A stretch of DNA of 64,000 nt from an uncultured Methanosarcinales archaeon (GCA_964552005.1 CAZKFC010000001.1:109934-173933); one strand, 5' to 3'; positions 6,398 to 64,000 are shown, counted from the first letter of the stretch. Program-made: numbers and translations. Notes: generated by a model from the sequence alone, not told the origin.

Positions 6398-6420
6398 GAA
6401 TGTAACTACAATCTTAAATA

Positions 6421-7832: not shown

Positions 7833-7893
7833 ATCACCTTTTTATCTATATTATTAAAAAAATATTTAAGAATATATAAAATCATCTAGATTA

Positions 7894-9790: not shown

Positions 9791-9821
9791 ATATTTAAAA
9801 AATTGAGCAATACTCACAACC

Positions 9822-40120: not shown

Positions 40121-40256
40121 TTTTTAGTCAATTTTTGCTTAGAAAACAAGTATTTTTGTCCTCTATAAAACTAAATATTTTCGTATTTAAAAAGGTTTGG
40201 GTGTAATACTTGAAAAATACCTAAAATTTATAAAGCCATCTGAATTTAATGAAATG

Positions 40257-42246: not shown

Positions 42247-42262
42247 AACATTTCTTTTTTAA

Positions 42263-43507
42263 TTGACAATGATAAGGGATTATTTTAGGATAGCAACTCT
42301 TAATTTAAGAAAAAGGAAATTAAGAAGTTGGCTGACCATGATTGGTATCTTCATTGGGGTAGCTGCTGTTATTTCTTTAATTGGTTTGGGAGAAGGCTTA
42401 AGAACAGCAATTAGTTCTCAGTTCGGTTTTTTGGGAAGCGATATATTGAGTATACAGGCTTCCGGGCTAAACTATGCAGGTTCTCCTGGAAGTGGTGTTA
42501 TAGACCCTCTAGACAATAAATTAGTAGATAAAATTGAAAGAATAAGAGGTGTAGAAAGTGCCTATAACAGGTATATTGAGATTGCAACCTTTGAATTTAA
42601 AGATGCACAGACATTTGGCCCGATCACAACTATACCGGAAGGTGTTGACAGGAAAACTTTCGAGCGCCTATTAAATTTAGAGACAATGGAAGGTCGGATG
42701 TTGACAGATACAGATAACCGCAGGGTTCTATTAGGATATAATTATGCAAAACAAGTTGTTTTTGGTGAGGATAATGTTTTCAAGAAAGGTATACACGCCG
42801 GCGATAAGTTATATATTAATGATGAACAATTTGAAGTTGTTGGAGTTCTTGAGAAATCAGGTAATTTTATGTTTGATGGTGCTGCTTTCCTTAATGAAAA
42901 TGTTTTTTTAGATATGTTTGGAGATGACGGCACAACAGATATAATCGCAGTTAAAGTTGAAGATGAGAATAAAGTTGAGATGGTGAAAGAATCTATTGAA
43001 AAATTACTTCGGAAAGAAAGAAATGTGAAAAAAGGCGAAGAAGATTTTGTTGTACAAAGCCCTCAGAAGATACTTGAAACACTCAACTCAACATTATTTG
43101 CTGTACAATTATTTGTTTATATAATAGCCGGTATTTCAATTGTTGTGGGAGGCATTGGAATAATGAACACAATGTACACAGCTGTCTTGGAAAGGACAAA
43201 AGAGATTGGAATTATGAAAGCTATCGGAGCAAAAAATTCTACAATATTCACTTTGTTTTTCATTGAATCCGGATTTTTGGGGATGGTAGGCGGCTTAATT
43301 GGTATTGCATTAGGAATGGTTCTTGCTTACGGGTTGGCTACTGTCGGCAAGTTAGCTTTAGGATCAGAACTTATCCAGGTTCATATCCCCTTTTACTTAG
43401 TACTGGGAGCTTTAACAGGTTCTTTCATGCTAGGAACCTTTTTTGGTGTAATACCCGCCACACAAGCTTCAAAATTACAGCCAGTGGATGCTTTAAGATC
43501 AAAATGA
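42263..43507 (+). CDS. ABC transporter permease (FtsX/MacB family)
   Basis: N-terminal TM, large external domain, three C-terminal TM helices with the IMNTMYTAVLERTKEIGIMKAIGA motif. Confidence 0.85.
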   Translation: MTMIRDYFRIATLNLRKRKLRSWLTMIGIFIGVAAVISLIGLGEGLRTAISSQFGFLGSDILSIQASGLNYAGSPGSGVIDPLDNKLVDKIERIRGVESAYNRYIEIATFEFKDAQTFGPITTIPEGVDRKTFERLLNLETMEGRMLTDTDNRRVLLGYNYAKQVVFGEDNVFKKGIHAGDKLYINDEQFEVVGVLEKSGNFMFDGAAFLNENVFLDMFGDDGTTDIIAVKVEDENKVEMVKESIEKLLRKERNVKKGEEDFVVQSPQKILETLNSTLFAVQLFVYIIAGISIVVGGIGIMNTMYTAVLERTKEIGIMKAIGAKNSTIFTLFFIESGFLGMVGGLIGIALGMVLAYGLATVGKLALGSELIQVHIPFYLVLGALTGSFMLGTFFGVIPATQASKLQPVDALRSK

Positions 43508-44715
43508 ATGTGGAAGAAATTAAATATTCAATAAAGAACGTTTTTAAAAGAAAAACCAGGAGTTTCCTTACTATATTATCAATCTTAATGGGTATAACTG
43601 CAATTTTTACATTAACTAGTTTTGGTCTTGGTATACAAAATTATGTTAATGTATTAGCAGAGGAAGCAGGCGCGAGATTATTATACATACAGGCACAAAG
43701 TTTTGGTGTGCCGGGAACAGACGAAAATTTCTTTATAACTAGTGATGAAGTTGATTTTATCAGGAAAATCAAGGGTGTTGAGCAAGCTGTTGGTTTATAC
43801 ATGAAAGTCGCTGAAATTAAGTCTAAAAACCAAGTTAAGTATAATTGGATTGTGGGTTATGACACGGATTATTATAATTTGTTATTTGAAGGTTTTGGTA
43901 TTGACATAGAGAAAGGTAGGCAACTAAAGGAGGGAGATCTAAACAAAGTACTGCTTGGACATAATTATCAGCTGCCAGATACAATATTTAAAAAACCTTT
44001 GGCAGTGGGTGATAAAGTTGAGTTGAACGGGAATTCGTATGAGATTATAGGTTTTGTCAGTGAGGTTGGCAATCCAGGAGATGACTCAAATATTTACGTA
44101 ACTGAAAGGACAATGGAAAGTTTGTATCCAAATGTTAAAGATAAATTTGGTTGGGTGATGCTTAATGCAGAAAAATCAACAAGTCCAGAAGATCTTGCAG
44201 AGAAGATTGAAGAAAAACTTCGTAAATATAGAGGTCAAGAAGAAGGTAAAGAAGATTTTTTCGTGCAGACTTTTTCTGATGTTATTGAGACTTTTGGCAC
44301 CATCATAAATATCCTTACCGGAGTTTTAATCTTAATTGCAATTATATCATTGATTGTGGCGGCTGTTAATATTATGAACACGATGTATACAGCTGTTTTG
44401 GAAAGAACTAAAGAAATCGGTATAATGAAAGCCATTGGCGCGAGAAATAAAGACATAATGTTTATCTTTGTTTTTGAAGCTGGTTTGCTTGGATTATTGG
44501 GAGGCGTTCTTGGGGTTATCTTTGGTTATTTTATAGCAAGTTTAGCAGGGCAAATCGCAGCTTCTGCTGGTTATTCATCTTTATACCCTATCTTTCCTAA
44601 TTCCTTAATCTTTGGTTGTATTTTCTTTGCATTTTCAGTTGGAGCCTTATCAGGGTTATTTCCTGCTATCAGAGCCTCCAAATTAAACCCGACAGACGCA
44701 CTCAGATACGAATAA
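43504..44715 (+). CDS. ABC transporter permease (FtsX/MacB family), a paralog of the preceding gene
   Basis: Same motif IMNTMYTAVLERTKEIGIMKAIGA. Confidence 0.85.
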   Translation: MNVEEIKYSIKNVFKRKTRSFLTILSILMGITAIFTLTSFGLGIQNYVNVLAEEAGARLLYIQAQSFGVPGTDENFFITSDEVDFIRKIKGVEQAVGLYMKVAEIKSKNQVKYNWIVGYDTDYYNLLFEGFGIDIEKGRQLKEGDLNKVLLGHNYQLPDTIFKKPLAVGDKVELNGNSYEIIGFVSEVGNPGDDSNIYVTERTMESLYPNVKDKFGWVMLNAEKSTSPEDLAEKIEEKLRKYRGQEEGKEDFFVQTFSDVIETFGTIINILTGVLILIAIISLIVAAVNIMNTMYTAVLERTKEIGIMKAIGARNKDIMFIFVFEAGLLGLLGGVLGVIFGYFIASLAGQIAASAGYSSLYPIFPNSLIFGCIFFAFSVGALSGLFPAIRASKLNPTDALRYE

Positions 44716-50185: not shown

Positions 50186-50713
50186 TCAAAAACTTACAAA
50201 GGTTTTTAGTTTTGTATATACAGGGCCTTCCTTAGTTAAAGTACTTTCATATAAGATAAAACTGTCAACATCAAAACTTTTTTCTTCAGTTTTTATTTTT
50301 TGAAGAAATTCTTTAAATCTTGTTTTGTCTTTAACAAAAGAAACTCTGGCTAGTGTAATATGGGGATGAAACTGGAAATCTTTCTTAACTTTCAAGGCAT
50401 TTTCAATATCCTGTTGTAATTTATTTAAAACAATATTTTCTTGTACTCCCAACCAGATAACTCTAACATAATTTTGACTAGGGAAAACCCCAATGTTAGA
50501 AGTTTTTAGTTTAAACTTGTCAAATTTTATTTTTTTAAGATTTTCAATTACTTTCTCGCAAAGTTCTCTGTTAACATCTCCAAGAAACTTTAAAGTTAAA
50601 TGAAAAGATGAAGTTAACCTTAACTTTGCTAAATCTTTGTCAAGTCTAGCTTGTATTCTTTTAATATATTTTTGAACTTCAATGGAAGGATCTATTGCAA
50701 TAAATAATCTCAT
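50186..50713 (-). CDS. thpR: RNA 2',3'-cyclic phosphodiesterase (LigT/ThpR, 2H phosphoesterase)
   Basis: Two H-x-T/S-x motifs (HLTLKFLG; HPHITLAR). Confidence 0.8.
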   Translation of the reverse strand: MRLFIAIDPSIEVQKYIKRIQARLDKDLAKLRLTSSFHLTLKFLGDVNRELCEKVIENLKKIKFDKFKLKTSNIGVFPSQNYVRVIWLGVQENIVLNKLQQDIENALKVKKDFQFHPHITLARVSFVKDKTRFKEFLQKIKTEEKSFDVDSFILYESTLTKEGPVYTKLKTFVSF

Positions 50714-50764
50714 GAATAATTAAGAAATAAAAATCTTTATTTAAATTTTATAAAAAAGAAGAAT

Positions 50765-51232
50765 TTATTCTAGATCTTCGCCAAAGTTTTCTGAGTCTTT
50801 GTCTTCTTTTTCAGGACTAGATTCTTCTTTTTCTTCAGTTTCCTCTGCTTTTTCTTCAGGCTTTTCCTCAGGTGTTTCTTCTTCAGCAGGTTCTTCTGGG
50901 GCCTCTGCAGGTTCCTCGGCAGGTTCTTCTTTGGTTTCTTCAACTGTTTCTTCAGGTTTTTCTTTCTCTTCTGCTTGCTCTGCTTCTTCTTTAGGTTGTT
51001 CAGCTTCACCTTCGGATTTGCCAATAACCTCAGCAAAACCAACTCTCCTCAACACCTTAGTAACACGTACACGAACTTCGTCGTTAACTTGTGTCCCTGG
51101 AATTACCAAGACAAAACCGTCTTTTTTTGCAATTCCATCGCCTTTGTCGCCAAGGGCTTCTATTTTCACATCTAACTCATCGCCTTCTTTAACTGGCGCA
51201 AATCTATTGTATCCATTCATATTTTTTAACAC
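50765..51232 (-). CDS. TRAM-domain RNA-binding protein with a long acidic E/K/P-rich C-terminal tail
   Basis: GDELDVKIEALGDKGDGIAKKDGFVLVIPG ... RVRVTKV TRAM fold. Confidence 0.75.
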   Translation of the reverse strand: MLKNMNGYNRFAPVKEGDELDVKIEALGDKGDGIAKKDGFVLVIPGTQVNDEVRVRVTKVLRRVGFAEVIGKSEGEAEQPKEEAEQAEEKEKPEETVEETKEEPAEEPAEAPEEPAEEETPEEKPEEKAEETEEKEESSPEKEDKDSENFGEDLE

Positions 51233-51318
51233 CTTATCTACTTTAAGAGGTTGACACCTCTATTTTCTTAAAAAATCTTTTGAATTTATAAATATATAGA
51301 AAAAAAGAAAGAAAAAAA

Positions 51319-52305
51319 TTAGAAATCCCTTAACCCGGAAGTTTCTACCATGAAAGCAGCTTCACCGTCTGGTAAATTTGGGCTATCTACCAATTTTGCA
51401 ACACGGCTGCCTTTTTTGCCCTTTCTAAGGTAAACTCTGAAGGTGGAAGCATGTGCAACTATGTGTCCGCCTATTGCTGCGGTAGGATCTCCGAAAAACA
51501 CGTCCGGTCTGGACATGACTTGGTTTGTCACATACACCAAAACATTGTGTGTGTCTGCTATTTTTAATAGCTCGTGCATGTGTTTGTTTAGTTTTTGCTG
51601 ACGCTCTGCTAATGTTCCCCGGCCAATAAATTCTGCTCTGAAATGAGCTGTTAATGAATCAACAATAACAACTTTAACATTCAAGCCTTGTTTTGTTATT
51701 AAATCGCTAACCTTTTCTGCTAACAACATCTGGTGATCTGAATTATAGGCACGGGCTACTTTAACATTTTCCAGTACTTGTTCAGGGTCAAGACCAGCAC
51801 CTTTTGCAAGTTCAACTATCCTCTCAGGTCTAAATGTGTTTTCTGTATCTATAAATACCGCTACTGCAGTAGGGTCTTGTTTTTGGCATTGGACTGCTAG
51901 TGCAAACGCAATCTGTGTTTTACCACTGCCAAACTCGCCAAAACATTCAACAATGGCAGAAGTTTCAAAACCTCCTCCAAGTAAATTATCTAAATTAGAA
52001 GAGCCTGTTGGCACTTTCAAAATGTTTTGTCTTTTCTTTAGTATGTCTGTGCCTGATTCAAAGCCCATTTTCATTGCAGATCTTGCGGCCGCAATAATTT
52101 TTTTGGCAGCTGCTTCTCCAACTCCGGATGCCTCAACCAATTCACCGGGCGTGGCAACTGCTATTGACATTAAATCCTCGAATCCTGATACAGACAATTT
52201 TTCTGCAGTTGCAGGACCTACTCCTGGTAAATCCATAACTGTAATTTCTTTTTCTTCCATTTTTGGTTCTATTATTACGATTTCTTGTTTACTCATAAAT
52301 ATCAC
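51319..52305 (-). CDS. radA: Archaeal RadA recombinase
   Basis: N-terminal HhH (LPGVGPATAEKL), GEFGSGKTQ Walker A, and the RecA/RadA core. Confidence 0.9.
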   Translation of the reverse strand: MIFMSKQEIVIIEPKMEEKEITVMDLPGVGPATAEKLSVSGFEDLMSIAVATPGELVEASGVGEAAAKKIIAAARSAMKMGFESGTDILKKRQNILKVPTGSSNLDNLLGGGFETSAIVECFGEFGSGKTQIAFALAVQCQKQDPTAVAVFIDTENTFRPERIVELAKGAGLDPEQVLENVKVARAYNSDHQMLLAEKVSDLITKQGLNVKVVIVDSLTAHFRAEFIGRGTLAERQQKLNKHMHELLKIADTHNVLVYVTNQVMSRPDVFFGDPTAAIGGHIVAHASTFRVYLRKGKKGSRVAKLVDSPNLPDGEAAFMVETSGLRDF

Positions 52306-52326
52306 CTTTTTTATAAGATTTTTGGA

Positions 52327-52653
52327 TTAAGCAACTTCGTTTTCAGAATAGCTGTCTTTTAATGTAATATATTCATAGGCTTTCTGAAGAACCAATGCTG
52401 CCTTTGGCAGGTCGTTTATCCTTAACGAGTTTGTTGAGTTCCACTCACCATTTTTGTCCTGGTAATTTCTATCCAGGGAAACTGTCCGGTATTCAACAAC
52501 TTTACCATCTCTTTCAGTATGGTTTTTCCACACAGTGGCAGAAATTGCGCCAGCCCTAAACTTTTTTTCTGGCAGGTTTGTTTTAAGTTCTGTTTTTTGC
52601 ATATATATCGCCTCCGTTTCCTTATCGGTTTTTATTTCAAGAGTCTCCTTCAT
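52327..52653 (-). CDS. Hypothetical small protein, possibly an OB-like nucleic-acid-binding protein
   Basis: 108 aa; lies between radA and the RPA-like gene; no firm family. Confidence 0.35.
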   Translation of the reverse strand: MKETLEIKTDKETEAIYMQKTELKTNLPEKKFRAGAISATVWKNHTERDGKVVEYRTVSLDRNYQDKNGEWNSTNSLRINDLPKAALVLQKAYEYITLKDSYSENEVA

Positions 52654-52746
52654 TATGGATTACAAGATCCCAGAGACTGGAGGGTGCTTGTATCTTACAA
52701 GCTTTTATGATATGTAAAACAGAATTCCTTTATATACCTCACACGA

Positions 52747-52892
52747 GAATGTCCAGTGTGTCCACTGACATGTTTTAGGAAGTGGACTTCCCAAACGTGT
52801 TTTAAAGTGAGGGTGTGTCCACTGACATGTTTTAGGAAGTGGACTTTAGGAAAGAGCAAGGCAGTGAGTATATGTCTACCGATATGTTTTAG
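52747..52892. repeat. Three tandem units, each a 33-nt hairpin repeat plus a 24-nt unique spacer, with a 57-nt period. The third repeat is degenerate.
   Basis: tgtgTCCACTgacatgttttaggaAGTGGActt at 52747-52779 and again at 52804-52836 (identical). A degenerate copy, about 24 of 33 matching, lies at 52861-52892. The spacers are cccaaacgtgttttaaagtgaggg and taggaaagagcaaggcagtgagta. Confidence 0.6.
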
Positions 52893-52936
52893 CAGAGGAC
52901 TCTAAGAAAAAAAGCAGATATGACCAGTGCTTATAA

Positions 52937-54331
52937 TTAATATATAGAATCTAGGTCTGTTATATCTTCAATATCATCAATATCTTCAAGTTCTTTTTGT
53001 GGCTTTGATTCTTCTGGCTCTTCAGGCGTCTCAATCTCTTTAATTAATGTTTCTGATAAGTCAACAGCCTCACTTTCCTTATTCTCTTTAACTTGTTCAA
53101 CTGTTTCAAGAGTTTCTTCTGGTTTTTCTTCAATAGCATCATTAATAGGGCTTGGCATGAAATCCTCTTTACTTGGTTCTTCCCTTGTTTTTTCTAGCAT
53201 AATTGTTTCTTCCACGGGCTCTTCCACAGCTTCTTCTTTTATAATTTCTGATGTTGATGATTCTTTACTTGGCTGAGTTTCTTCCACAATATTATCTGAT
53301 TTAACTTGGACAGTCTCAACTTTATTTTCTTTTACTGATTCTTCTTTTACAGATTCAAGTTCTTTGTCTAATCTGGCAATTTCTTCTTTAGGATCAGGGT
53401 TTGTAAAGACTAGTTGTGGAATAAATTCAATCCGGTCAAACATATCGTTTTTATTAGTTCTGCCGACAAACTTTACAATCTGGCCAAGCAACTCGTTCTT
53501 AATATCTTCAAATGAGCTTTCTTTTTTTGCAATAATCTCTTCATTATTCATATTAAGCAGGTTTTGGACTTGGTTACGCCATAACACCACACGGACATTT
53601 TCTGTCCCGTCATCTAAAAATAGATTAAGAACATATGCATAACTAGGATCTACTTTATTATGAACATCACAATAAAACCCGTCTTCTCTTTTTTTAACCC
53701 GTTTATTACACTGAGGACACACTTCAAAGAACCTCGGATCAAATACTTGAACTATTGTACCTAGAATTTCAACATTATTCTCATTTTCTTTTAAATCAGC
53801 TATCTTCTTACGTTCAGCTTTATCTTTTACTTCAATATCTTTTACATCATTGGGAGATATTGTAACAGTAGTTTTCTCACCAAGGTGCACTTCCATTCTA
53901 CCCCTATTATCTCTAGAATAGCCGTTCTCAATCTTTATTATATCATTTTCTTTTATTTTGCTTAGAAGATCAGCCTTATCATTCCACGCCACTACTCTTA
54001 TCATGCCTGTTTCATCACCTATTATGAATGAGCCAACCCTGCCTTTCCTATTATCTTTTTCAAAGGTTCTGACTTCATATATATTCATGACCTTGCCTGT
54101 TAATTCGACATGCCTCATCCCAGCCAAAACATTTTTTATCTGCAGTTTACCTGGATCTTCCAATATTTTAACGCCGAGCTCATTTGCTATAATATGTAAG
54201 GCGCCTTCCTCGCTTATTAATCCAGATAATTGATCTAGTTTATCTTTTACTCTTGAATTTATTTCTTGGTCAGAAAGGCCGGCTTTCTCTTTGATTTTTT
54301 CTATTATGATGTGTTTAGGAATCTTTATCAT
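52937..54331 (-). CDS. Replication protein A (RPA)-like ssDNA-binding protein with OB folds, a Zn ribbon and an acidic C-terminal tail
   Basis: Tandem OB-fold-like regions and a CPQCNKRV...CDVHNKV zinc ribbon typical of archaeal RPA. Confidence 0.65.
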   Translation of the reverse strand: MIKIPKHIIIEKIKEKAGLSDQEINSRVKDKLDQLSGLISEEGALHIIANELGVKILEDPGKLQIKNVLAGMRHVELTGKVMNIYEVRTFEKDNRKGRVGSFIIGDETGMIRVVAWNDKADLLSKIKENDIIKIENGYSRDNRGRMEVHLGEKTTVTISPNDVKDIEVKDKAERKKIADLKENENNVEILGTIVQVFDPRFFEVCPQCNKRVKKREDGFYCDVHNKVDPSYAYVLNLFLDDGTENVRVVLWRNQVQNLLNMNNEEIIAKKESSFEDIKNELLGQIVKFVGRTNKNDMFDRIEFIPQLVFTNPDPKEEIARLDKELESVKEESVKENKVETVQVKSDNIVEETQPSKESSTSEIIKEEAVEEPVEETIMLEKTREEPSKEDFMPSPINDAIEEKPEETLETVEQVKENKESEAVDLSETLIKEIETPEEPEESKPQKELEDIDDIEDITDLDSIY

Positions 54332-54425: not shown

Positions 54426-54893
54426 ATGTATAAAAAAGCACAGGCAACTTCGTGGTCATTAAAGGAAATAGGAGATTTATTGTTGAGGATATTTGCTGTT
54501 TTGATATTAATTGTGTTTTTAGTTAGTGTTGTTAATATATTTACACAATCAAAACCTATTAGGAATGTATATCAAGATTTTGAACGTGTTATTGGCGAGA
54601 TAGAAGATTTGAACGAGGGAGAAGAACTTCTTGTTCCTATATTATCTGATGGTTATCATATGATTGTAAGGCCAATGGACGTTGTGAAAGAACAACAGTT
54701 TGGCTGTAGATTAGATGAAAGTGATTATTGTGCTTGTCTATTAAATGAAGATGATCAAATCCTTAGATGTAAATCTTTTAGCAAGAAAGATGATGAAGGC
54801 ATTGTTGAAATAGATCCGTTAACAGATGTTTATTTAACAAATAGTCGGGGAGTTCTTTTAAGTTATGATAACGGAGAAATTAATTTAAGTTAG
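54426..54893 (+). CDS. Hypothetical anchored protein with the N-terminus MYKKAQATSW followed by a TM helix
   Basis: Same [KR]KA-x-W-TM N-terminal pattern as the neighbouring minus-strand genes; 14-nt convergent 3' overlap with the 1178-aa gene. Confidence 0.35.
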   Translation: MYKKAQATSWSLKEIGDLLLRIFAVLILIVFLVSVVNIFTQSKPIRNVYQDFERVIGEIEDLNEGEELLVPILSDGYHMIVRPMDVVKEQQFGCRLDESDYCACLLNEDDQILRCKSFSKKDDEGIVEIDPLTDVYLTNSRGVLLSYDNGEINLS

Positions 54894-57800
54894 AGACATG
54901 ATTTACAGATTCTGCAATATCGCCATTATTTCCCAATATACAACCTTGCTTTCCTAATTGAGCATATGCTCCTCCTTTACAGAAAGCAGCGTTCATTAAC
55001 ATACTTTCTGAACAACCGCTATTTTTCATAGCTTCCCCTAGTTGTTGAGCAGTCAGCCATTGTCCTTTTACTTTGAATCTGTAATAAGTACTTCCTGAAT
55101 AATATTCAGCACCCCATTCAGACCTTACACCTAAACCATTTGTTATAGTTCCACCGCAACTTCCCTGTAGACTGTGAGTCAGTTCATGTCTAAATAGAGT
55201 ATTAAGTTGAGCTATGCTTGCACCTGTTAAAGCTTCTTCTTTACAATAAATACCATTACCACAACTACCTGAAACTCTCCAACACCAATAAGCAATTGGA
55301 CTTGGCGGTTGGCACTCACCACTTGGAGAGACAGGATACAATTCCATAGAACTTCCCATATCGTTCTTTATTTTTTCATAAATTTCCATATACGTCCCAT
55401 GATAAGTTTCGCCTGAATAACCAGAAGGATAATCATCGTCAATAACAATAACATCTTCTATTTCATCATATTCCATTACACTTTGTTGTCTCGCACCACC
55501 AGTATGCATTGTTAATGCAAACTTAACATCTACAGGTTTTGTTTTATAGGCATTATCTTCATATATGAAAGCTTCAGCATCTGTATCAATACAAAATTTA
55601 AATATCTTAGATTCATCATATCCTTCTGGTTTATCTATGCAACCCACACCATTCCAAACTTTACCAGAATCATAACAGTTTTTTGCCAAAAGATTGTTTT
55701 TACAGTAATCTAAGTTCCAATTTGTTTTACCATTGTTATCAAGAACTTCCAAAACACACTCCCTATAAGTTTTGGTTAAATCTCTACAAGATAGTTCTTG
55801 TCTGTCTTCTTCGCAATATTGTGGATTATTATCTTGATCTAGGCAAGTTGGCTGATTAAATTCAAGTTCACAAACATATTCTCCAGCTATTTGATATCCA
55901 TCCGTATTTGTGTAACAATCTAAAATCTGGCCTTCGTCATCACATGTTAAAGGAACACCATTTTCATCATAACATATAGTTCCACTTGGCAATCTCCCAT
56001 GACAAGTATAATCATAGAATGCACATTCTTTTACTTCTGTAATTAACTGGTTGCTGGCAAAAGACATATCATTATGGATTTCTGTAAAATCAAAGTCAAA
56101 TTCTTCATTTATTTCAGGGTTAAGGAAATAATATCCTGTATCTGTCTCAGACATTAATTGTGATAATGCTTCTAGATCAAGCACAGTAGTTACTTCGTCT
56201 GCAGAATCCGTATTAGAAGGATTCCATTCAATATCTCCGGGACATGCACCTTGAAATTGAGATGCTTGTGTATGAAAATCTTCAACATAATTTTGTACTC
56301 TTCTTACAATATCTTCATAATTTGGTTCATTCTCAAATGCAGGGGCTCTGCAGCCCCAACCATTATAGCCACGTAAGGCCATATCCCAACCAGAATATAC
56401 AACATGTTTATTATCAAGGGAAGGGAATTCACTATTATCACAATCATAGGGTTTATTAGCACTTGGGTTCCGGCAGTTAAAAGCATTGCATTTCTCTAAT
56501 AAAATTTTAGCACCACATTCAATGTTGTCATTTAGTTTATAGATGTCTAATGGATGACCATCTATCTCACTATTACCACAATCTCTTCTACCAGTAATTT
56601 GCATAATACCAACACCACCATCGCCACTTACTTTAACAGTGCCGTCATTTCTATAATGGTTACCTCCACTTTCTTTCTGGGCTATTGTTAATAATATTGT
56701 TCCAGGTATATTATATGCATTTGCAACCTGGCAAACTTTCTTTTGTTGGTCTGACAGTTCTTCATAAGTTAATCTACCTGTAATTTTGTCTTTGTCAGGA
56801 ACAAAGATAAATAATCCTACTACCAGAATTAAAACAAAGAATAATGAAAAAACAATCAATTTGTTTTTTTTGATATAATAAACAATCCCAATTATAACAA
56901 ATATTAACAATATTACAATTATTATTGTTTTATAAGATCTTTCAGGTTCTTGAATAATAACCTCTTCTACATTAACTTCTTCTTCAACTATTTCTTCTGG
57001 TACAAATTCAGGTGGGGTTTCTCTTGCTTCAAATTCATGTTTGCATTCTCCAATACAACATTCAGTTGAATCTGCTGATAATACTTGAGTACCAAAACAA
57101 TCTTCATCATAATTACATATTTGTCCACCAGTTTTTTCACACGATTCGTATTGTTCGTATATTTCTTCATCAGGTGCTTTCGGTATGAAATCAAATTCAT
57201 CAAATATTGTAATATCTTCAATTTCAGAAACTACAGATCCAGTAATTAAATTTGGTTCATCACTTTCTGAATTCTCATCTTCACATACTCTTTTAGCGCC
57301 AATATAATGTTCATTCCAATGATCTTCTTCCAAACTGTCTATTTGTACAGGACTTCCAGCATGAATAAATTGACAATCACCATAATAAATACCTACATGT
57401 GATATTCCTTCAGTATGTGTGTCTGCAAAAAAGATTAAGTCGCCTTTTTGAAGTTCATCACAATTTGGGATTATTGAAGCATAATTATCAACATCTAATG
57501 TTGGATCATGGTCAACAGGCTTTCCAATATTGTGGGCTTGCCAATTTGCATTTCTTTCCTGAATGAAAAAACTATCATCTCCTGTTTTTTCAGAATAATA
57601 ATTGTATACCCATTTAGTGAATGAACTACAATCTATAGTACATCTACCAGTTTCCCTAGTCAATAATCTCCACCTATTAGCTGTCCATCCTAATTCTTCT
57701 AATTCTGGCGAGATACTAGGCAATCTACAATTAGAATCTGTTGGTGGCAATTCATCAGAGGGCCATTCACGAGATCCTAGAAAATAGGGGTGTCCTATAC

Positions 57801-58416
57801 CTTTTTCAGCAATTTCAACTAGATTTTCACCACAACTACCTGTAAAAGTAATTTCTCTTGTTGTTTCACTAACTTTGTTTCTTAATCTATATGTGCTCTC
57901 GCTCAAAAGTAATTCTTGTTCATCATTAATTTCAAGTTTCAATCCTCTGTTATATCTGCCATATAAATTAAATCCTGGGCTATCTTCAAAAAAATAAAAG
58001 TTGTAAATTGGATAAGGAATTCCATCGTTTGGAAATACTCCAGTGTATGTTTTTAACAAGTTAATTAATCTATAAGTTACAGTACCTTTTACATTTGCTA
58101 CACAGTTTTTAGAAGGAGTATTTAATAATTTGTAGCCGTAATAAGAAGGTCTTTCAGAATCACATACCCAATTATAGAGAAAACCTGTATTTGCACCTTC
58201 ATACAATGCCTGCATAAACGCTAATTTTGTTGAAAAATCAATGTAATTTTGGACATTTTCAGCTTTTTCATACGCGTCCATCAAACTAAATTGGGTAGTG
58301 CCAACTTTTTCATTATATATAGAGAATTTAGCCCACAACATTGTTATAATTGTAAATACTAAAATAGCTGTAATAAATACTAACCATAAGGAATATTCAG
58401 TTGCTTTCTTACGCAT
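54880..58416 (-). CDS. 1178-aa Cys-rich multidomain envelope protein. From N- to C-terminus: an MRKKA prepilin-like/signal-anchor, an NlpC/P60 cysteine peptidase, a two-TM hairpin, a family-1 lytic transglycosylase (SLT), a Cys-rich region, and a C-terminal HExxH zincin.
   Basis: NlpC/P60 (RCTIDCSSFTKWVY ... ISHVGIYYG ... FIHAG); SLT (IAQKESGGNHY ... GVGIMQITG); HELTHSLQG; TM hairpin YKTIIIVILLIFVIIGIVYY/LIVFSLFFVLILVVGLFIFV. Confidence 0.8.
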   Translation of the reverse strand: MRKKATEYSLWLVFITAILVFTIITMLWAKFSIYNEKVGTTQFSLMDAYEKAENVQNYIDFSTKLAFMQALYEGANTGFLYNWVCDSERPSYYGYKLLNTPSKNCVANVKGTVTYRLINLLKTYTGVFPNDGIPYPIYNFYFFEDSPGFNLYGRYNRGLKLEINDEQELLLSESTYRLRNKVSETTREITFTGSCGENLVEIAEKGIGHPYFLGSREWPSDELPPTDSNCRLPSISPELEELGWTANRWRLLTRETGRCTIDCSSFTKWVYNYYSEKTGDDSFFIQERNANWQAHNIGKPVDHDPTLDVDNYASIIPNCDELQKGDLIFFADTHTEGISHVGIYYGDCQFIHAGSPVQIDSLEEDHWNEHYIGAKRVCEDENSESDEPNLITGSVVSEIEDITIFDEFDFIPKAPDEEIYEQYESCEKTGGQICNYDEDCFGTQVLSADSTECCIGECKHEFEARETPPEFVPEEIVEEEVNVEEVIIQEPERSYKTIIIVILLIFVIIGIVYYIKKNKLIVFSLFFVLILVVGLFIFVPDKDKITGRLTYEELSDQQKKVCQVANAYNIPGTILLTIAQKESGGNHYRNDGTVKVSGDGGVGIMQITGRRDCGNSEIDGHPLDIYKLNDNIECGAKILLEKCNAFNCRNPSANKPYDCDNSEFPSLDNKHVVYSGWDMALRGYNGWGCRAPAFENEPNYEDIVRRVQNYVEDFHTQASQFQGACPGDIEWNPSNTDSADEVTTVLDLEALSQLMSETDTGYYFLNPEINEEFDFDFTEIHNDMSFASNQLITEVKECAFYDYTCHGRLPSGTICYDENGVPLTCDDEGQILDCYTNTDGYQIAGEYVCELEFNQPTCLDQDNNPQYCEEDRQELSCRDLTKTYRECVLEVLDNNGKTNWNLDYCKNNLLAKNCYDSGKVWNGVGCIDKPEGYDESKIFKFCIDTDAEAFIYEDNAYKTKPVDVKFALTMHTGGARQQSVMEYDEIEDVIVIDDDYPSGYSGETYHGTYMEIYEKIKNDMGSSMELYPVSPSGECQPPSPIAYWCWRVSGSCGNGIYCKEEALTGASIAQLNTLFRHELTHSLQGSCGGTITNGLGVRSEWGAEYYSGSTYYRFKVKGQWLTAQQLGEAMKNSGCSESMLMNAAFCKGGAYAQLGKQGCILGNNGDIAESVNHVSNLN

Positions 58417-58861
58417 TGTTAAACTTTACCTCTATATATGAAAATGAATCTTCAAATATTATTGGCAAATATGTTTTAGCATCTATCTCGCCAATTTGTA
58501 ATTCAGACATATCCATACAATCACGGCTGTTTTCCCTAACTCTAGTTCCGTTAATATTCATGGTCCAGCATAATGGATAACCGAAAGCGTCTTCCAATAA
58601 ACTATTTACAGCAGTCTTTGTTCTGGAAAAATCTTTTTCCTGGAAATCTTTAATTATGGTTTGTTCAATATTATTGTCTTCTGCCCTTAACAAATTTAAT
58701 AAAAATAAATCAGAGTTTAGTTCTTGTTTTATTTCATTTAATTTATGTGTGGTTCTGCCAAAAAAACCTACAGAAGCTAATAAAATAATGAATAATATTA
58801 ATATAATAACAACAGCAATAATATCAACTTCTACAAATGCTTTTTTCTTCATTTTCTCCAT
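58409..58861 (-). CDS. Prepilin-like (class III signal peptide) protein
   Basis: MEKMKKKA|FVEVDIIAVVIILILFIILL, with a KKA motif followed directly by a hydrophobic helix that has E at +3 and D at +5; 8-nt overlap with the downstream gene. Confidence 0.5.
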   Translation of the reverse strand: MEKMKKKAFVEVDIIAVVIILILFIILLASVGFFGRTTHKLNEIKQELNSDLFLLNLLRAEDNNIEQTIIKDFQEKDFSRTKTAVNSLLEDAFGYPLCWTMNINGTRVRENSRDCMDMSELQIGEIDAKTYLPIIFEDSFSYIEVKFNNA

Positions 58862-59313
58862 GCAACCTCTATCAGCATATTACCTGGGTGATCATCTACT
58901 AATACAAGGTAACGTTTTTTTACGAGCAGATATTTTTCTGAAAAAGTTAATGGCTCAATATCTTCAAAATATTCTTGGTTATAATACAGAATGTCTTGAT
59001 CATTATTGTAATTTAAAGTGATTCTTGCACCGATTGCTTGTCTTGTAGGTGCCATGCATTTCTGTAGATTTTCTTGTGTAAATTTTTCTGAAACAATATG
59101 ACCAGGATAAGCTCTGTTATTTTCTACTTTAATGAAACAATTCCTTGAATATAAGAATCTCTCTGCTATAGAATAAAATTTTAAATCATCGATGTCAAGG
59201 CTTTTTTCTATTGTGCCATTTGTAATAAAAACTAATAAACCAATTACTAATATTGTGCCTATAATCCTCACTATCCACAATACATTCTCGCCTTGTTCAG
59301 CTTTTTTATTCAT
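58849..59313 (-). CDS. Prepilin-like/anchored protein
   Basis: MNKKA|EQGENVLWIVRIIGTILVIGLLVF; overlapping gene junctions. Confidence 0.45.
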   Translation of the reverse strand: MNKKAEQGENVLWIVRIIGTILVIGLLVFITNGTIEKSLDIDDLKFYSIAERFLYSRNCFIKVENNRAYPGHIVSEKFTQENLQKCMAPTRQAIGARITLNYNNDQDILYYNQEYFEDIEPLTFSEKYLLVKKRYLVLVDDHPGNMLIEVAWRK

Positions 59314-59788
59314 TAATCAGTTCCTCTTTAGTATTATAGTAGCGGACAGTATCGCCAGCTTTTACTATTGCAATTCTAACAGGAATAACGTATTCAGGTG
59401 TTTCTCCAACATAAGTAACAATGGGCTGGACTTCGTCATAATATAACTTTGTAGTAGGATCTTCAATAAAACCATACTTTGCAATACTGCCCTCAATAAT
59501 TGTGCCTTTCTTGTTTATTACCCGAATATTGTTTTCTTGGATGTCAAAAGAAAATTTTTGTGTGTCATGTGGGTAAACATATATTAAATCATTCGGACTT
59601 GCTAATACAGTATCTGTCAATATTCCTAAATCTATAGCTAAATAATTCTTTTCAAAATAATCTGAACTTGTGACCTGCATGACAAAAGCAAACACTGGCA
59701 AAAATATGAAAACAAAAACAACAATTAATCTAACTAATACATTCCATGACAATGTAAAATATTCAGAGCCTCTTTTAGATTTCAGCAT
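59306..59788 (-). CDS. Prepilin-like/anchored protein
   Basis: MLKSKRG|SEYFTLSWNVLVRLIVVFVFIFL; first gene of the minus-strand operon. Confidence 0.45.
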   Translation of the reverse strand: MLKSKRGSEYFTLSWNVLVRLIVVFVFIFLPVFAFVMQVTSSDYFEKNYLAIDLGILTDTVLASPNDLIYVYPHDTQKFSFDIQENNIRVINKKGTIIEGSIAKYGFIEDPTTKLYYDEVQPIVTYVGETPEYVIPVRIAIVKAGDTVRYYNTKEELINE

Positions 59789-60027
59789 GGTTTTATTTTT
59801 AGCATAAAGACTTTATATACTTTTTTGTTAAAACTGTTAAAACCAAAACTTATTTATAGTTAATAAATAGAGAAAATATTAATGTTTTTGAATAAAAAAA
59901 GTCAAGTTACAACATTGTCACCGGCCACAAAATTAATAGGCGTAATAATTTTAGGTGTTGTCTTATTATTAATAATATACTTTGTATTCAAAGATAAATT
60001 AGCTGAAATATTGGTGAGCAATTATAT

Positions 60028-61071
60028 ATGAAAAAAAGAGCATTCATAGAAATACATGGTTTAGTTGAAATTATTTTAGTGTTAGTTGTGATATTCGTAT
60101 TATTAGGGATAACTGGTTATTATAAAATTATATTAAATAGATTTGGTGAAGATACATTATGCCAGGGAAGTTTTGTTGCTAGTGCAATGACTAAGATGTT
60201 TGGCCAAACAACTATAGATCCTAAATGCCGTACTAATAGAATTACTTTAGTAATGGATGTTGAAGATGAAGGCGAGACAGAAACAGGCGGTGTTAAAATG
60301 GCTCTCAAAAAAGATTATCCGCCCCCAATACCAAGTCAAACTTGGGATACTAAATTAAGAGTGGATAACTGGAATGAACAATATGAAGAATTTCCTTATC
60401 CTTATCCTGAAGATGCTCCATCAGGACTTTCGGCAGAGGAAGAAGATGAATACGTTACAGTTAGATACAACATGGACAAGATCTTTGCGGATGAATTAAA
60501 AAGATGCTGGACAATTGTCGGAAAAGGTAATCTGCCATTATTTGATAACTGGTTTAGATTTATTGAATGTAATGGCGGTGAATGTGAAAACATAATGGAG
60601 GCTATGGGTGCAATTGTTGGTATAGGTGGTAGTACAACACCAACTGCAAACTTTTGTGTTTTATGTAGTAGAATTAAATTTAGTAGTGAAGTTATGAAGG
60701 GTTATTCAGGAGAATTTAATTCTATTAACCAGTGGATGAAAAATAATCCATGGCAAGTTGGTAGGCGTACTAGTTATTTAGAATATTTAATGGAAGAAGA
60801 TCAAAGTTTTTTTGCAGCACCTTCATTTTCATATTCTACGAATGAGCCACAAGCAGTTGTTTTTATTAGAGTAAACTTCCACCAAATTCCTGTATGGTTA
60901 TTACAATCTGCTGACTTAGCAGACACAGCACTATCTATGTTACCTTTTTATGAAGGAACGGAAGATAATCCTGTTTACTATGCAAATGCATTAAAGATAT
61001 TGCCGTATAATGAACTTTCAGATCCAAATAGTCCTTATCAATGTGATTATATAGTTGGAAGTTATATTTGA
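60028..61071 (+). CDS. Prepilin-like protein with a large Cys-containing exported domain
   Basis: MKKRA|FIEIHGLVEIILVLVVIFVLL, almost the same signal as the 58409-58861 protein; divergent from the minus-strand operon. Confidence 0.5.
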   Translation: MKKRAFIEIHGLVEIILVLVVIFVLLGITGYYKIILNRFGEDTLCQGSFVASAMTKMFGQTTIDPKCRTNRITLVMDVEDEGETETGGVKMALKKDYPPPIPSQTWDTKLRVDNWNEQYEEFPYPYPEDAPSGLSAEEEDEYVTVRYNMDKIFADELKRCWTIVGKGNLPLFDNWFRFIECNGGECENIMEAMGAIVGIGGSTTPTANFCVLCSRIKFSSEVMKGYSGEFNSINQWMKNNPWQVGRRTSYLEYLMEEDQSFFAAPSFSYSTNEPQAVVFIRVNFHQIPVWLLQSADLADTALSMLPFYEGTEDNPVYYANALKILPYNELSDPNSPYQCDYIVGSYI

Positions 61072-61073
61072 AA

Positions 61074-61217
61074 ATGAATAAAAAAGCTGAATTAACTATT
61101 GAGACAATTGCAATATACTTATTAGCATTATTTTTTGCCGCTGTTGTCATTTATTTAATAATGACTAATGGTTATAAGATACGCGAGTTATTAAACATTT
61201 TATTTGGGATATTATGA
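61074..61217 (+). CDS. 47-aa minor prepilin-like protein MNKKA|ELTIETIAIYLLALFFAAVVIYL...
   Basis: Found by hand. It has E at +1 and +5 after the putative cleavage site. Its start lies 3 nt after the upstream stop, and its stop overlaps the next start (ATGA). Confidence 0.4.
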   Translation: MNKKAELTIETIAIYLLALFFAAVVIYLIMTNGYKIRELLNILFGIL

Positions 61218-64000
61218 ATAAGAGAGCATTAGTGTTTAGGACAGTTGCATTCATTATATTAGTTTTAGCTTTGTTAGTAGTTGGCTTCAATATCTTGGGC
61301 GTATTAAGGGAAGCAGGTATAATCTCACCAGGTTCATTTTTAGATGATTATGGTACTTTTACTCCTTATCATCTTGCGCCAGAAACTGCAGCAGAAGTTA
61401 CTGTTCAAGATTCTGTTAATGCTTTGGTATGCGCAATTAATATGGTTTCTGCATTAGATAATATACCGACATCCGTTTTAAGAGGAGGATCTGTAGAGAG
61501 TTATATTAGCAGCAGACTAAACAGAAATTTGTATGAAAGCAACTGTCCAGATGGTAATTATATTGAATTTACAGAAGAAGAATTAACAAATGTTAGAGGC
61601 AGTAAATGTTTTGAAAATTATGGTGTTTGTGTTTCAGAAGTTGAAAATGATAAGGCACATTATGAAGATGCTGATTATAATCCTAATGATGATATTACAT
61701 GTCCTAGAACAAGACCGGAATGCGAATTGCAATGTAAATTTGCATGGGGGAGATCTTGTGAACCAACCTCTTCTGAAAAAAAAATTTGTGATAATAATTA
61801 TGCCAGATATTGTATGGCCTCTGGTTACTGGTGCCAGCAATTATGTTCATACAGTGTTGGTTCCTTAGGCTATTCCAGGACTGCCCCAACAGGGTGTGAG
61901 GTGGAAAAAGGTAATGTGTATTGTAATGGGGTGAACGGAGAAATCAATTATGATTCAGAAATTGAAGAGAATATTGAAGAATATGCAGCCCAAGTAAGAA
62001 CTGGTTATGATGTTGCTTTAGAGTGTAATGAAGGTGTTTTATTTGGTTCTAGCTGTGTTAAATGCGAATTAGATGAATCACGTTTCAAATGCAAAGTTAA
62101 TAATTTTTATCTACCACAAACAGGAGCAGGTGACAGAGGTACTTTAGATAGGTGGATTGCTGGGTTAGGAGATCCTGAGTTTGTTTTATATTATGAAGCA
62201 TTTCCTGAAGGGGAAGATGAATATTGGAAACCAGATTATGCTAGTTATTCACCATTATTGTTGTATGGTGCTTCTATAGCATCACTAATTCTTCCAGCAG
62301 ATGCTGAGTTGATTAAGGCAGTTCACCAAGAAAGAAGACTTACAGATATTTTGGTAGATAATACTTTAATTGGGAAAATAGGAGGATCTTTGTTTAAACA
62401 AGCCCAACGTGTAAAAAAGGGGCTTTTTTTATTAGGTGTTAAAAATGCAGATTTTGCAGCCAGATTAGATTTAATTGAATTGGCATTAAGAAAATCTGAT
62501 ATTATGTTTCAGGATTCAACAGAATTTTTACCTTTAATAAGAAAATATGTTGATGAAAACTCTTTAAGAATCACTGATGAAATTGCTCTACAAAGAGAAT
62601 TAGCCGGAGAATTCGAAAGACAAATTGCAAGAGCTGAAGGTGTGATTCCTGGTTCAACTGGAGCAAGAGCAATAGAACAAATAGCAGAGGAAGAAGCATT
62701 AGCTTTTATGACACATATCAGAACTGGTTTAGGATCATCTTCTGTTGATATTGCCAAAGCACGCATGGCCAGAAATCTAGGGTTGTCCTTAGATCAAGTT
62801 TATGAAAACGGTAAAATAAGTGTCGAAGCAGTTGGTGAATTCCTAAAAGATAATCCTGATAGGGTTGAGGCTTTTGTTGAGCTTATGGAATCAGGTAGTT
62901 TATCCGCAGACCAGATGGGGGATTATATAAGACTATTAAGAGATACAACAGATGAATTTTCAGATAATTGGATGCAGTATCATCTCATTGGAAGAAATTC
63001 AGATGGTTTGAATGATTTTATGGCTGCATTAGGTCAAAATCCTGAAGAAGTAACAAGGGTTGGAGGTCTTATGCGTAGAATACCTATATTAAGAGCAGGT
63101 GTTCAGATGGCAGAATGGGGCAGAGCCATTGGGTTAGGTGCTTTAAGCTTAACAAGTACAGAAAATAGATGGTTTACAATGGCCTTCTTGTATTTTATGG
63201 GAGATTTAATTGACAGCGTTAATAACAAATTTTTGCCACATGGTGTGAATAATTTAGTTATTCAAACACCGCACATGCTTGGACAAGCCTATACATACGA
63301 ACTTGAAAAATCCACACCTTATTCCATAATTTTAAACAATAATCAAAAAATTGGCAGATTCTATTTTGCTAGTCCATGTAAAGCAGACCTTACAGTTGAA
63401 TCTGAACAGTTTAGTACAACTATCTCAGATATAGGTGACTTATTAATTTATGATTTATATGACTTTGGATCTGGGTTAATGACAGTTAAAAAAGGCACAT
63501 TGGATTATAAAATACCAGCTCCAAGTTTATATGATGAAGGACAAAGACTAAATTCAATATCTAATTATAATACAGTACTTACTCAATTAAGGAATATTGA
63601 CACTAGTTTTTCAACTGTTTCGGGAAGTACATCAATTGAAGATCTGTATAATTATGCAAAAGAAAAATATGCTAATAATGAGTTTGAAAAGGCACTTAAA
63701 GTATTCATGATAATAACAAAATATTATCCGGTTTCTATCGAAGCATACCATTCATATTCAATAATTGATGAGTTCTTAACAGATTACGAACTCTTTTTGA
63801 AAATTCCACCAGATGAATTAAAAAATATTGCTTTTGAGTTTTTTATTGATGATGATGACACAATAAAATATTATTCAGAGTTTTGGGAAGATATTTATAA
63901 TAAACTTGAAAATGGCGAGATATCTAATTACCCCGAGGCTGTTCGTGGACACGCTTGTATGAATGAAGTTACATATAGAGAAAATCTTGGATTATGTATG
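61214..64000 (+). CDS. Large (over 928 aa, open to the window end) prepilin-like anchored protein with Cys-rich and helical regions
   Basis: Hand translation shows an uninterrupted frame from the ATG at 61214 to 64000. The N-terminus is MNKRA|LVFRTVAFIILVLALLVVGF. The gene is absent from the ORF track because no stop lies in the window. Confidence 0.6.
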   Translation, partial: MNKRALVFRTVAFIILVLALLVVGFNILGVLREAGIISPGSFLDDYGTFTPYHLAPETAAEVTVQDSVNALVCAINMVSALDNIPTSVLRGGSVESYISSRLNRNLYESNCPDGNYIEFTEEELTNVRGSKCFENYGVCVSEVENDKAHYEDADYNPNDDITCPRTRPECELQCKFAWGRSCEPTSSEKKICDNNYARYCMASGYWCQQLCSYSVGSLGYSRTAPTGCEVEKGNVYCNGVNGEINYDSEIEENIEEYAAQVRTGYDVALECNEGVLFGSSCVKCELDESRFKCKVNNFYLPQTGAGDRGTLDRWIAGLGDPEFVLYYEAFPEGEDEYWKPDYASYSPLLLYGASIASLILPADAELIKAVHQERRLTDILVDNTLIGKIGGSLFKQAQRVKKGLFLLGVKNADFAARLDLIELALRKSDIMFQDSTEFLPLIRKYVDENSLRITDEIALQRELAGEFERQIARAEGVIPGSTGARAIEQIAEEEALAFMTHIRTGLGSSSVDIAKARMARNLGLSLDQVYENGKISVEAVGEFLKDNPDRVEAFVELMESGSLSADQMGDYIRLLRDTTDEFSDNWMQYHLIGRNSDGLNDFMAALGQNPEEVTRVGGLMRRIPILRAGVQMAEWGRAIGLGALSLTSTENRWFTMAFLYFMGDLIDSVNNKFLPHGVNNLVIQTPHMLGQAYTYELEKSTPYSIILNNNQKIGRFYFASPCKADLTVESEQFSTTISDIGDLLIYDLYDFGSGLMTVKKGTLDYKIPAPSLYDEGQRLNSISNYNTVLTQLRNIDTSFSTVSGSTSIEDLYNYAKEKYANNEFEKALKVFMIITKYYPVSIEAYHSYSIIDEFLTDYELFLKIPPDELKNIAFEFFIDDDDTIKYYSEFWEDIYNKLENGEISNYPEAVRGHACMNEVTYRENLGLCM

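Follow-up and report, generated by a model that had tools for sequence, protein, structure and literature searches.

The present analysis concerned a stretch of 64,000 nucleotides (nt) from an uncultured Methanosarcinales archaeon (GCA_964552005.1, CAZKFC010000001.1:109934-173933), hereafter the window, and in particular the locus that closes it (positions 54426-64000). There, nine consecutive genes (A, B, C, D, E, X, F, G and H) all start with a short basic tripeptide, [KR][KR][A/G/S], followed by a hydrophobic helix, and one of them, B, encodes a protein of 1178 amino acids (aa) with predicted wall-degrading modules. This locus is proposed to encode one half, the subunits and accessory proteins, of an archaeal type IV filament system that is pilus-like and driven by a PilB/PilC pair, in a DPANN archaeon of the Woesearchaeota type, a reading to which a probability of roughly 0.62 was assigned. 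Judged from the sequences, its pilin-like scaffolds are conserved, and wall-active or carbohydrate-binding modules are added to them lineage by lineage. More tentatively, and at odds clearly below even, the whole might be a DPANN pilus-like machine whose pilin-type subunits carry murein hydrolases (SLT, NlpC/P60, M23 or NAGPA, set according to lineage on a conserved scaffold of the minor-pilin kind) and which latches onto and opens the wall of the bacterium that is its host or prey, acting as a device of cross-domain episymbiosis or predation, while H and its neighbour family I would stand for an unrecognised type of archaeal pilus. The genes of the locus are given below, a slash marking the putative cleavage site.

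54426-54893 (+): gene A, 155 aa, MYKKA/QATSW, hydrophobic domain 16 residues past the putative cleavage site
54880-58416 (-): gene B, 1178 aa, multi-module protein with the class III-like start MRKKA/TEYSLW
58409-58861 (-): gene C, 150 aa, MEKMKKKA/FVEVD, hydrophobic domain directly past the site
58849-59313 (-): gene D, 154 aa, MNKKA/EQGENVLW
59306-59788 (-): gene E, 160 aa, MLKSKRG/SEYFTLSW
59789-59881: divergent spacer between E and X, 93 bp, with two TATA-like boxes (sequence read directly)
59882-60031 (+): gene X, 49 aa, MFLNKKS/QVTT, small pilin-like or Flp-sized protein
60028-61071 (+): gene F, 347 aa, MKKRA/FIEI, ectodomain with Cys, no known family
61074-61217 (+): gene G, 47 aa, MNKKA/ELTIE, constant position between F and H
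61214-64000 (+): gene H, first 929 aa of a giant protein, MNKRA/LVFR, running off the window

The motif was found in all nine locus genes, while it was absent from all 15 further window proteins whose N-terminus has a hydrophobic segment (9/9 vs. 0/15, Fisher P = 7.6e-7), the controls being scored for [KR][KR]?[GA] before the helix and the locus count of 9/9 needing Ser to be allowed at position -1 as well, because of X. An ordinary bias of this proteome, which the earlier note had named as a possible explanation of the tripeptide, does not account for such a distribution. Moreover, ordinary Sec signal peptides stand at the N-termini of other proteins that this organism secretes (window position 40960; L103:1130). 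Archaeal class III signals have a charged residue at -2, Gly, Ala or Ser at -1 and a cleavage site before the hydrophobic domain (PMC4371748), and all nine N-termini agree with this published description, as the earlier note had suspected of four of the seven that it quoted, the other three being a distinct variant in its view. Across orthologues, position -2 remains Lys or Arg, and position -1 is exchanged among Gly, Ala and Ser (MNKRA or MNKRG in H, KKA or KKS in G, KKS or KKA in X), a pattern which fits the rule of the archaeal prepilin peptidase (PMC4371748). For B, C, D, F, G and H, the hydrophobic domain begins within 4-6 residues of the site, and for E, X and A it is separated from the site by 9-16 residues of polar or amphipathic character. 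The site was also retained in relatives of higher G+C content, as MKG/, MKA/Q and MRKG/Q. Family I has an N-terminal transmembrane (TM) helix and no consistent [KR][GAS] site, and thus serves as a negative control within the cluster itself.

The connection with a pilus machinery was found through the families H and I. An exhaustive HMMER search placed at least 263 clusters in the H family at E <= 1e-3 and 71 at E <= 1e-10, mostly of 700-1700 aa. An N-terminal hydrophobic domain was present in 135 of 149 representatives, with [KR][GAS] just before it in 107 of those 135; at these 107 sites, -2 was Lys in 79 and Arg in 28, and -1 was Gly in 67, Ala in 37 and Ser in 3. No informative Pfam domain was detected in the 49 family members tested, where only DUF6861 and NNH2 were matched, each by a single member. 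Distant relatives of H were obtained by scanning metagenome contigs with the H alignment. In L095/L097 and L101, a T2SSE protein of about 748 aa (E = 4e-15 and 2e-14) lies directly upstream of H-like, I-like and small genes that start with MKG/, MKKG/ or MRKG/Q. Furthermore, an upstream polytopic protein of about 690-707 aa matches T2SSF in L101 (E = 2.6e-6), its counterpart in L095 being 37% identical, and L094 opens with the tail of a PilC-like gene upstream of H-type genes. The best PDB matches of the linked ATPase were Archaeoglobus fulgidus GspE2 (1.6e-25), CpaF and FlaI. Since L098 and L101 carry Alba, and L101 also FEN1 (both recognised from N-terminal sequences only), these contigs were taken as archaeal. 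The occurrence of H and I in ATPase/PilC loci, together with the recurrent site, suggests that the pair marks an unannotated archaeal pilus-type gene set. An archaellum was considered and rejected, as no archaellin, FlaH or FlaJ signatures were found and the ATPase is nearer to GspE2 and CpaF than to FlaI. Upstream of the ATPase, L095:682-3001 and L101:1485-2578 hold paralogous small membrane proteins (114-239 aa) with a motif like F(L)LPFLLVFAIVYG, for which neither a family match nor a class III-type start was found.

The order of the genes was conserved although the genomes had diverged to 25-60% identity, and the comparison of synteny that the earlier note had called for thus showed the cluster order to be kept in L007/L091, L009, L100, L106, L107 and L108. 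In GCA_964537195.1 (L007/L091), where B is 50% identical, the order A, B-C-D-E and X-F-G-H is maintained, and beyond H there follow I (217 aa), J (99 aa), two Cys-rich K proteins (93 and 91 aa), proteins of 156, 177, 343 and 160 aa, and an 864-aa surface protein with TSP3 repeats. RPA and PCNA flank this full cluster of about 17 genes at its two ends. All its genes beyond H, except I and that of the 864-aa protein, start with [KR][KR]?[G/A/S] and a hydrophobic domain, and many of its prepilin-like proteins have Gln at +1. A, B, C, D, E, F, G, H and I all have orthologues on a single strand of a distant Woesearchaeota contig (L009), and the pattern recurs in L100, L106, L107 and L108. Regarding the single genes, orthologues of A with KK[A/G/S] sites were found in L091 (151 aa), L009 (159 aa), L099 (163 aa), L107 and L108; those of C in L007 (46% identity) and L009 (27%, E = 4e-8); those of D in L007 (61%), L009, L099 and L107; and those of F in L007, L009, L100, L107 and L108, invariably ahead of G-H. 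Equivalents of G (42-65 aa) appeared in L007, L009, L100, L101 and L106-L108, and family I invariably adjoins H. A word-index search gave no match for a concatenated profile of A, C, D, E, F and I, and one match for the H profile.

As a separate observation on these clusters, tandem proteins of about 90 aa (L091:14840-15398 on the minus strand; their equivalent just past the window end is L003:6171-6440) have the textbook pilin-type start KKA/QSISINTIV and a short Cys-rich head. One of them passes the Pfam model AtDEF-like (defensin-like; E = 6.4e-6, 26.8 bits vs. a cut-off of 25), and three or four consecutive copies occur in L100 and L108. From their sequences, these proteins may be major pilin candidates or may bear antimicrobial-like heads.

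Several relatives showed how enzymatic modules are distributed over the scaffolds. The N-module of B (aa 1-167) is common to its homologues P0002-P0004, and in P0003 and P0004 an M23 peptidase is inserted between this module and NlpC/P60. In L107, the gene at the position of B (after E-D-C and beside RPA) encodes 292 aa that align to the N-module alone, and L099 has a stand-alone B N-module of 309 aa. Because some relatives thus possess a B subunit of about 300 aa without hydrolase, the hydrolases appear to be lineage-specific grafts. Similarly, the E module measures 160 aa in the window, 354 aa in L107 and 430 aa in L009, where it carries a NAGPA domain. Moreover, a 757-aa protein inside an H/I-type cluster (L099:6039-8312, plus strand) combines the class III-like start KASKKS/FWII with C-terminal CBM35/CBM6 (E = 3e-11 and 6e-9), and C39_2 was also found on a class III-like protein in the relatives.

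The protein encoded by B consists, in this order, of the N-module, NlpC/P60, a Cys-rich linker, a TM hairpin, SLT, a Cys-rich region and a C-terminal module with HExxH. Its main parts are located as follows.

57916-58416 (-): N-module of B, aa 1-167, putative prepilin-type signal and scaffold domain
57289-57639 (-): NlpC/P60 cysteine peptidase, aa 260-376, PF00877
56791-56928 (-): TM hairpin, aa 497-515 and 524-542 with the basic loop KKNK (hydropathy scan)
56470-56724 (-): SLT lytic transglycosylase, aa 565-649, PF01464
55102-55188 (-): HELTH and SEWGAEY, candidate zinc-peptidase motif, aa 1077-1081 and 1099-1105

The NlpC/P60 domain was recognised by PF00877 (E = 1.1e-14, 54.7 bits vs. a cut-off of 23) with its catalytic motifs intact (Cys263 in DCSSF, His340 in SHVGIY and His352 in FIHAG), its best PDB matches including LytE and hydrolases of Tn916-like conjugative transposons. 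The SLT domain was recognised by PF01464 (E = 2.4e-5, 24.3 bits vs. a cut-off of 21.3), with an intact Glu-Ser motif (IAQKESGG...GVGIMQI), and its motifs are kept in P0002 and P0004. Two of the three wall-degrading modules that the earlier note saw fused in B are therefore well founded, while the third, a zincin, had neither a hidden Markov model nor a fold in its favour: the C-terminus of B gave no match in Pfam, NCBIfam, PDB sequences (phmmer) or a PDB profile search, and the AlphaFold model of aa 940-1178 had a predicted local distance difference test (pLDDT) score of 34. An HExxH motif is expected in B by composition alone with a chance of about 3%, and the module is missing from P0003, P0004 and P0005; HELTH with the downstream SEWGAEY nonetheless lies within the best-conserved C-terminal block common to B and P0002, so that the zincin is an unproven candidate motif. 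All the homologues P0002-P0005 begin with [KR][KR][AG] and a TM helix. The hairpin (aa 497-542), which had been noticed from the sequence at the outset, is kept in P0002-P0004 and, by its predicted topology, places both enzyme-bearing segments outside the cell. Such a two-helix hairpin would keep B in the membrane, which makes the pilus-anchored location suggested by the earlier note unlikely for this protein. A scan of the genome collection with the full hydrolase alignment returned bacterial NlpC/P60 loci only (L011-L090). A viral origin was rejected, as only the NlpC/P60 domain matches phage tail lysins.

Taken as a mechanism, the filament reading would proceed as follows. A PibD-type peptidase encoded elsewhere would cut off the short basic leader MxKK[A/G/S]. 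The small proteins G, X, J and K and those of about 150 aa (A, C, D and E) would then act as major or minor subunits that build or prime a short filament or pseudopilus, the power coming from an ATPase and platform encoded at an unlinked site (a PilB/PilC pair), with H/I as a conserved large component, be it an adhesin or a part of the tip or base. B would be held in the membrane by its N-terminal helix and TM hairpin, rather than borne by the fibre, because of that internal hairpin, with both enzyme segments extracellular; its N-terminal helix may dock it at the assembly site, offering NlpC/P60 and SLT to a target bound by the filament. On contact with a murein-walled bacterium, SLT would cut the glycan strands and NlpC/P60 the stem peptides, and the local opening of the partner wall would lead to attachment or nutrient access. 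The specificities of SLT, NlpC/P60 and M23 suit bacterial murein, not pseudomurein. For this reason, the likeliest target would be a bacterial partner or prey, the main functional alternative being the scavenging of detrital murein.

A number of findings weigh against this filament reading. In several proteins, 5-16 polar residues separate the putative cleavage site from the hydrophobic domain, which is atypical. None of the cluster proteins scored above threshold for the curated pilin families of Pfam and NCBIfam (Pilin_N, Class_III_signal, Flp1_like and others), the best score being that of J with Flp1_like (E = 0.06, 13 bits vs. a cut-off of 33.5), and the small proteins, F, H and I had no match in Pfam, NCBIfam or PHROGs. 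Likewise, no pilin fold could be demonstrated, the AlphaFold models being poor (pLDDT 46 and 34) and Foldseek giving no hits; in the model of B aa 1-260 (mean pLDDT 46), a helix at 3-75, another at 109-125 and four strands were seen. As the earlier note had stated for pilus ATPase and platform genes in the window, neither of these nor a prepilin peptidase was present in the window, in the adjoining 4 kb or so on its left, where only Sec-type secreted proteins were seen, or in the Woesearchaeota-type clusters examined, and no candidate of the GxGD type was found within the window. The link to the machinery, moreover, runs through remote relatives of these families, H and I being only 24-25% identical to them. 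Pilin genes unlinked from the motor genes are also known in Haloferax (PMC4371748). In addition, the TM hairpin of B is incompatible with extraction into a fibre, and in P0002 (L007:10001-13681), the closest orthologue of B, DSSAF stands for DCSSF, that is, the catalytic Cys is replaced by Ser; the His residues of NlpC/P60 and the SLT motifs are kept in P0002, and NlpC/P60 may be inactive or altered in that lineage. Cleavage, filament, enzyme activity and bacterial partner are all predictions drawn from sequence.

Other explanations were weighed against the same observations. A bindosome-like anchoring without filament, where the class III signal would only process and anchor ectoproteins and the hydrolases would break down detrital murein or sacculi to obtain amino sugars and peptides instead of breaching a living partner, was considered rather unlikely. 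Such a system would agree with a cluster without assembly genes, with the NlpC/P60, SLT, M23, NAGPA and CBM35/6 modules appended to several class III-like proteins, with the hairpin that retains B in the membrane and with the processing of non-pilin substrates by PibD (PMC4858521; PMC4371748). However, the relatives of H and I sit in ATPase-PilC operons with small pilin-like genes, and the many subunits of 47-99 aa and about 150 aa without an enzymatic domain are what sets of major and minor pilins typically contain. The bindosome of Sulfolobus, for its part, depends on the PilB/PilC-like Bas system, and on this account the proposal is a variant of the filament reading more than an alternative to it. 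It was held improbable that the motif is a lineage-typical signal-anchor (Lys-Lys as positive-inside residues plus a small residue, in an AT-rich genome) and that unrelated surface proteins were clustered by chance. The AAA/AAG-rich coding sequence (about 29-36% G+C) favours Lys near the N-termini, no pilin family was matched and no peptidase is in view, but the motif is missing from the 15 other N-terminal-TM proteins of the window, classical Sec peptides are found on other proteins secreted by this organism, family I lacks the motif inside the cluster, the site is kept in the higher-GC relatives and in 107 of 135 H-family members, and the gene order is conserved.

Two further proposals start from the hydrolase. 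The locus might be a remnant or derivative of a monoderm conjugative type IV secretion system (T4SS), with B as a hydrolase like VirB1, PrgK or CwlT and the small bitopic proteins as channel parts like VirB8 or VirB3, which was deemed very improbable. The N-terminal TM, SLT and NlpC/P60 of B do mirror the VirB1-like hydrolases of Gram-positive bacteria (PMC12102498), its NlpC/P60 has hydrolases of Tn916-like conjugative transposons among its best PDB matches, the large 3D+NlpC/P60 proteins P0006-P0008, also among the best matches of that domain, were judged to be of the integrative and conjugative element type from architecture only, and there is a weak TrbN match (E = 0.14). In contrast, no VirB4, VirD4, VirB6 or relaxase was found in about 12 related loci, the H-linked ATPase resembles GspE2, CpaF and FlaI and has a T2SSF/PilC-like protein as its partner, a pairing that is the mark of a type IV filament and not of a T4SS, some relatives retain the cluster without the hydrolase, and the cluster is located between the housekeeping genes of RPA/RadA and PCNA. 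An origin from conjugation or a T4SS was rejected, as VirB4, VirD4 and VirB6 were found neither in the window nor in the related loci. Bacterial type IV pilus and secretion loci often carry a dedicated lytic transglycosylase. By this analogy, the hydrolases would remodel the wall polymer of the archaeon itself for the passage of the apparatus, as BfpH, R64 PilT and VirB1 do in bacteria (the role of VirB1 is described in PMC12102498), a proposal given very little credit. Against it, relatives keep the cluster without any hydrolase. The enzyme specificities fit bacterial murein, not pseudomurein. Furthermore, papers on these lineages regard murein transglycosylases as enzymes that Archaea normally lack and that are directed at bacterial walls (PMC8204110).

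Regarding the layout of the locus, all seven N-termini quoted in the earlier note were present, at B, C, D, E, F, G and H, and its suggestion that 54426-54893 might also belong to the series fits A; its list was correct as far as it went, having missed only X, the ninth gene. X, which reads MFLNKKS/QVTTLSPATKLIGVIILGVV and overlaps F by 4 nt (ATGA), was called by independent gene callers on six contigs, and its orthologue in L007 carries KKA/Q. The open-ended giant of more than 900 aa is H, which reaches its full length of 1257 aa in longer contigs of this strain, ending at the equivalent of window position 64987; it contains the motifs LPQ...GDPxY..YYE.FP.GE..W, ASPCKAD and NYCY. Two operons, E-D-C-B and X-F-G-H, diverge from the 93-bp spacer. 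Overlaps between same-strand genes ranged from 4 to 13 nt (C/B 8, D/C 13, E/D 8, X/F 4 and G/H 4). The earlier note had read overlaps of 4-14 nt as a sign of translational coupling; the 14-nt case involves the 3' ends of A and B, and is not coupling because these two genes are convergent. The TATA-like boxes lie about 24-31 nt upstream of E (TATATAAA) and about 27-36 nt upstream of X (TTATTTATA), and both are putative promoter elements.

The window is low in G+C content, about 25-36%. Immediately upstream of the cluster, RadA is encoded at 51319-52305 (Pfam Rad51, E = 4e-84), followed by an RPA-like protein at 52937-54331, and since RPA/RadA adjoin it in the window, L091 and L107, the chromosomal position appears conserved and not island-like. 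The nearest named homologue of B, P0003, is annotated as Candidatus Woesearchaeota archaeon, and the DPANN origin assumed in the earlier note, here of the Woesearchaeota type, is accordingly plausible, not proven. Around RPA/RadA (50186-54331), a TRAM protein and a 2'-5' RNA ligase were also seen. Elsewhere in the window, positions 40254-44715 contain an ABC ATPase with two FtsX/MacB-type permeases (from N-terminal sequences only) and a 428-aa Sec-secreted protein (MKKNLLLFGIFTILFLSMVKA/Q), a contrast case with a normal Sec signal peptide; at 32209-36075 (plus strand) there is an open reading frame of 1288 aa, a putative surface protein from its size alone, whose N-terminus may be mis-called. 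At 3755-11234, a gene of an IS200/IS605-type Y1 transposase (3755-4186) adjoins a PqqD-like gene (4220-4495), and NTP_transf_5, a faint ScmC-like match, a CapK-like AMP-binding protein and two B12-binding radical SAM proteins (7894-9453 and 9822-11234) were also found. The Pfam labels for this region were taken from the matching contig L103, and it resembles a cluster for the modification of peptides or polysaccharides.

The case for a possible life of Woese- and Pacearchaeota on bacteria has hitherto been argued from isolated SLT genes alone. Every DPANN archaeon cultivated to date has an archaeal host (PMC11291902). The locus described here would offer a concrete apparatus, with a defined gene set, a signature family (H/I), predicted cleavage sites and two assayable enzymes, and would illustrate for an archaeon how pilin-like subunits can receive grafted functional modules. 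These lineages are outside the coverage of the 2016 census of archaeal type IV pili (PMC4858521), and a 2025 survey of peptidoglycan hydrolases in Archaea reported no signals other than Sec and Tat (PMC12352652), so that surveys of this kind may overlook prepilin-type export.

Large extracellular SLT-domain proteins of Woese- and Pacearchaeota, with a proposed attack on bacterial walls, have already been published (Castelle 2021, PMC8204110; Vigneron 2022, PMC9723730), and in this respect the remark of the earlier note that the system was not a described one has to be restricted; the cluster, the prepilin-like signal and the pilus link, on the other hand, were not found in the literature searches. 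The locus agrees with those reports in the type of organism, in having a large secreted SLT/GH23 protein and in the role proposed for it, and B fits fam00969 of Castelle 2021 by description only, as a large extracellular protein with a lytic transglycosylase domain of the murein-like kind. Rinke 2013 and Castelle 2015 (AR20) are cited by Castelle 2021 for large SLT proteins. Castelle 2021 and Vigneron 2022 appear to give no description of a prepilin-type N-terminus, of NlpC/P60 or M23 partners, of a cluster of about 17 genes or of a PilB/PilC link. The word 'pili' occurs in neither paper and 'pilin' does not occur in Vigneron 2022, Castelle 2021 not having been searched for 'pilin' and neither for 'NlpC'. 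Overall, literature searches by term gave no account of prepilin-type N-termini, of the cluster, of the H/I family or of the PilB/PilC linkage, an absence from text searches being weak evidence.

Compared with known systems, the locus shares with archaeal type IV pili and Tad-like systems (Epd and EppA of Methanococcus maripaludis, PilA/PibD of Haloferax, Aap and Ups of Sulfolobus) the basic leader [KR][G/A/S] before the hydrophobic domain, often with Gln at +1, the operons of small and about 150-aa subunits, often unlinked from pilB/pilC, and, in its relatives, a GspE2/CpaF/FlaI-like ATPase beside a PilC-like protein. It differs from them in that no subunit is matched by a curated pilin family, in its giants of 1100-1300 aa (H) and its enzyme-bearing subunit with an internal TM hairpin, and in that no peptidase, ATPase or platform is nearby in the Woesearchaeota-type loci. 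As in the Sulfolobus bindosome, non-structural proteins bear prepilin-type signals, which there lead to surface display after PibD processing (PMC4858521; PMC4371748), whereas the cargo here comprises wall hydrolases and giants instead of solute-binding proteins, and adjacent BasEF-like genes are lacking. With the VirB1-like hydrolases (PrgK, TraG of pIP501, CwlT and Tn916 Orf14), B shares an N-terminal anchor combined with SLT and an NlpC/P60 or CHAP-type peptidase, its NlpC/P60 being most similar to that group, while it differs by its archaeal context, by the lack of a T4SS context and by a presumed target that is a foreign wall and not its own. Bacteria also have modular pilins (PilB/PilC of Streptococcus sanguinis) and tip complexes of PilY1 and minor pilins (fimU-pilVWXY1E). 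The resemblance to these lies in a functional module set on a pilin-type N-module and in some four small subunits accompanying a protein of about 1100 aa; unlike them, the modules grafted here are murein hydrolases, an extra TM hairpin is present, the signal is the archaeal one with a charged residue at -2, and no homology was detected.

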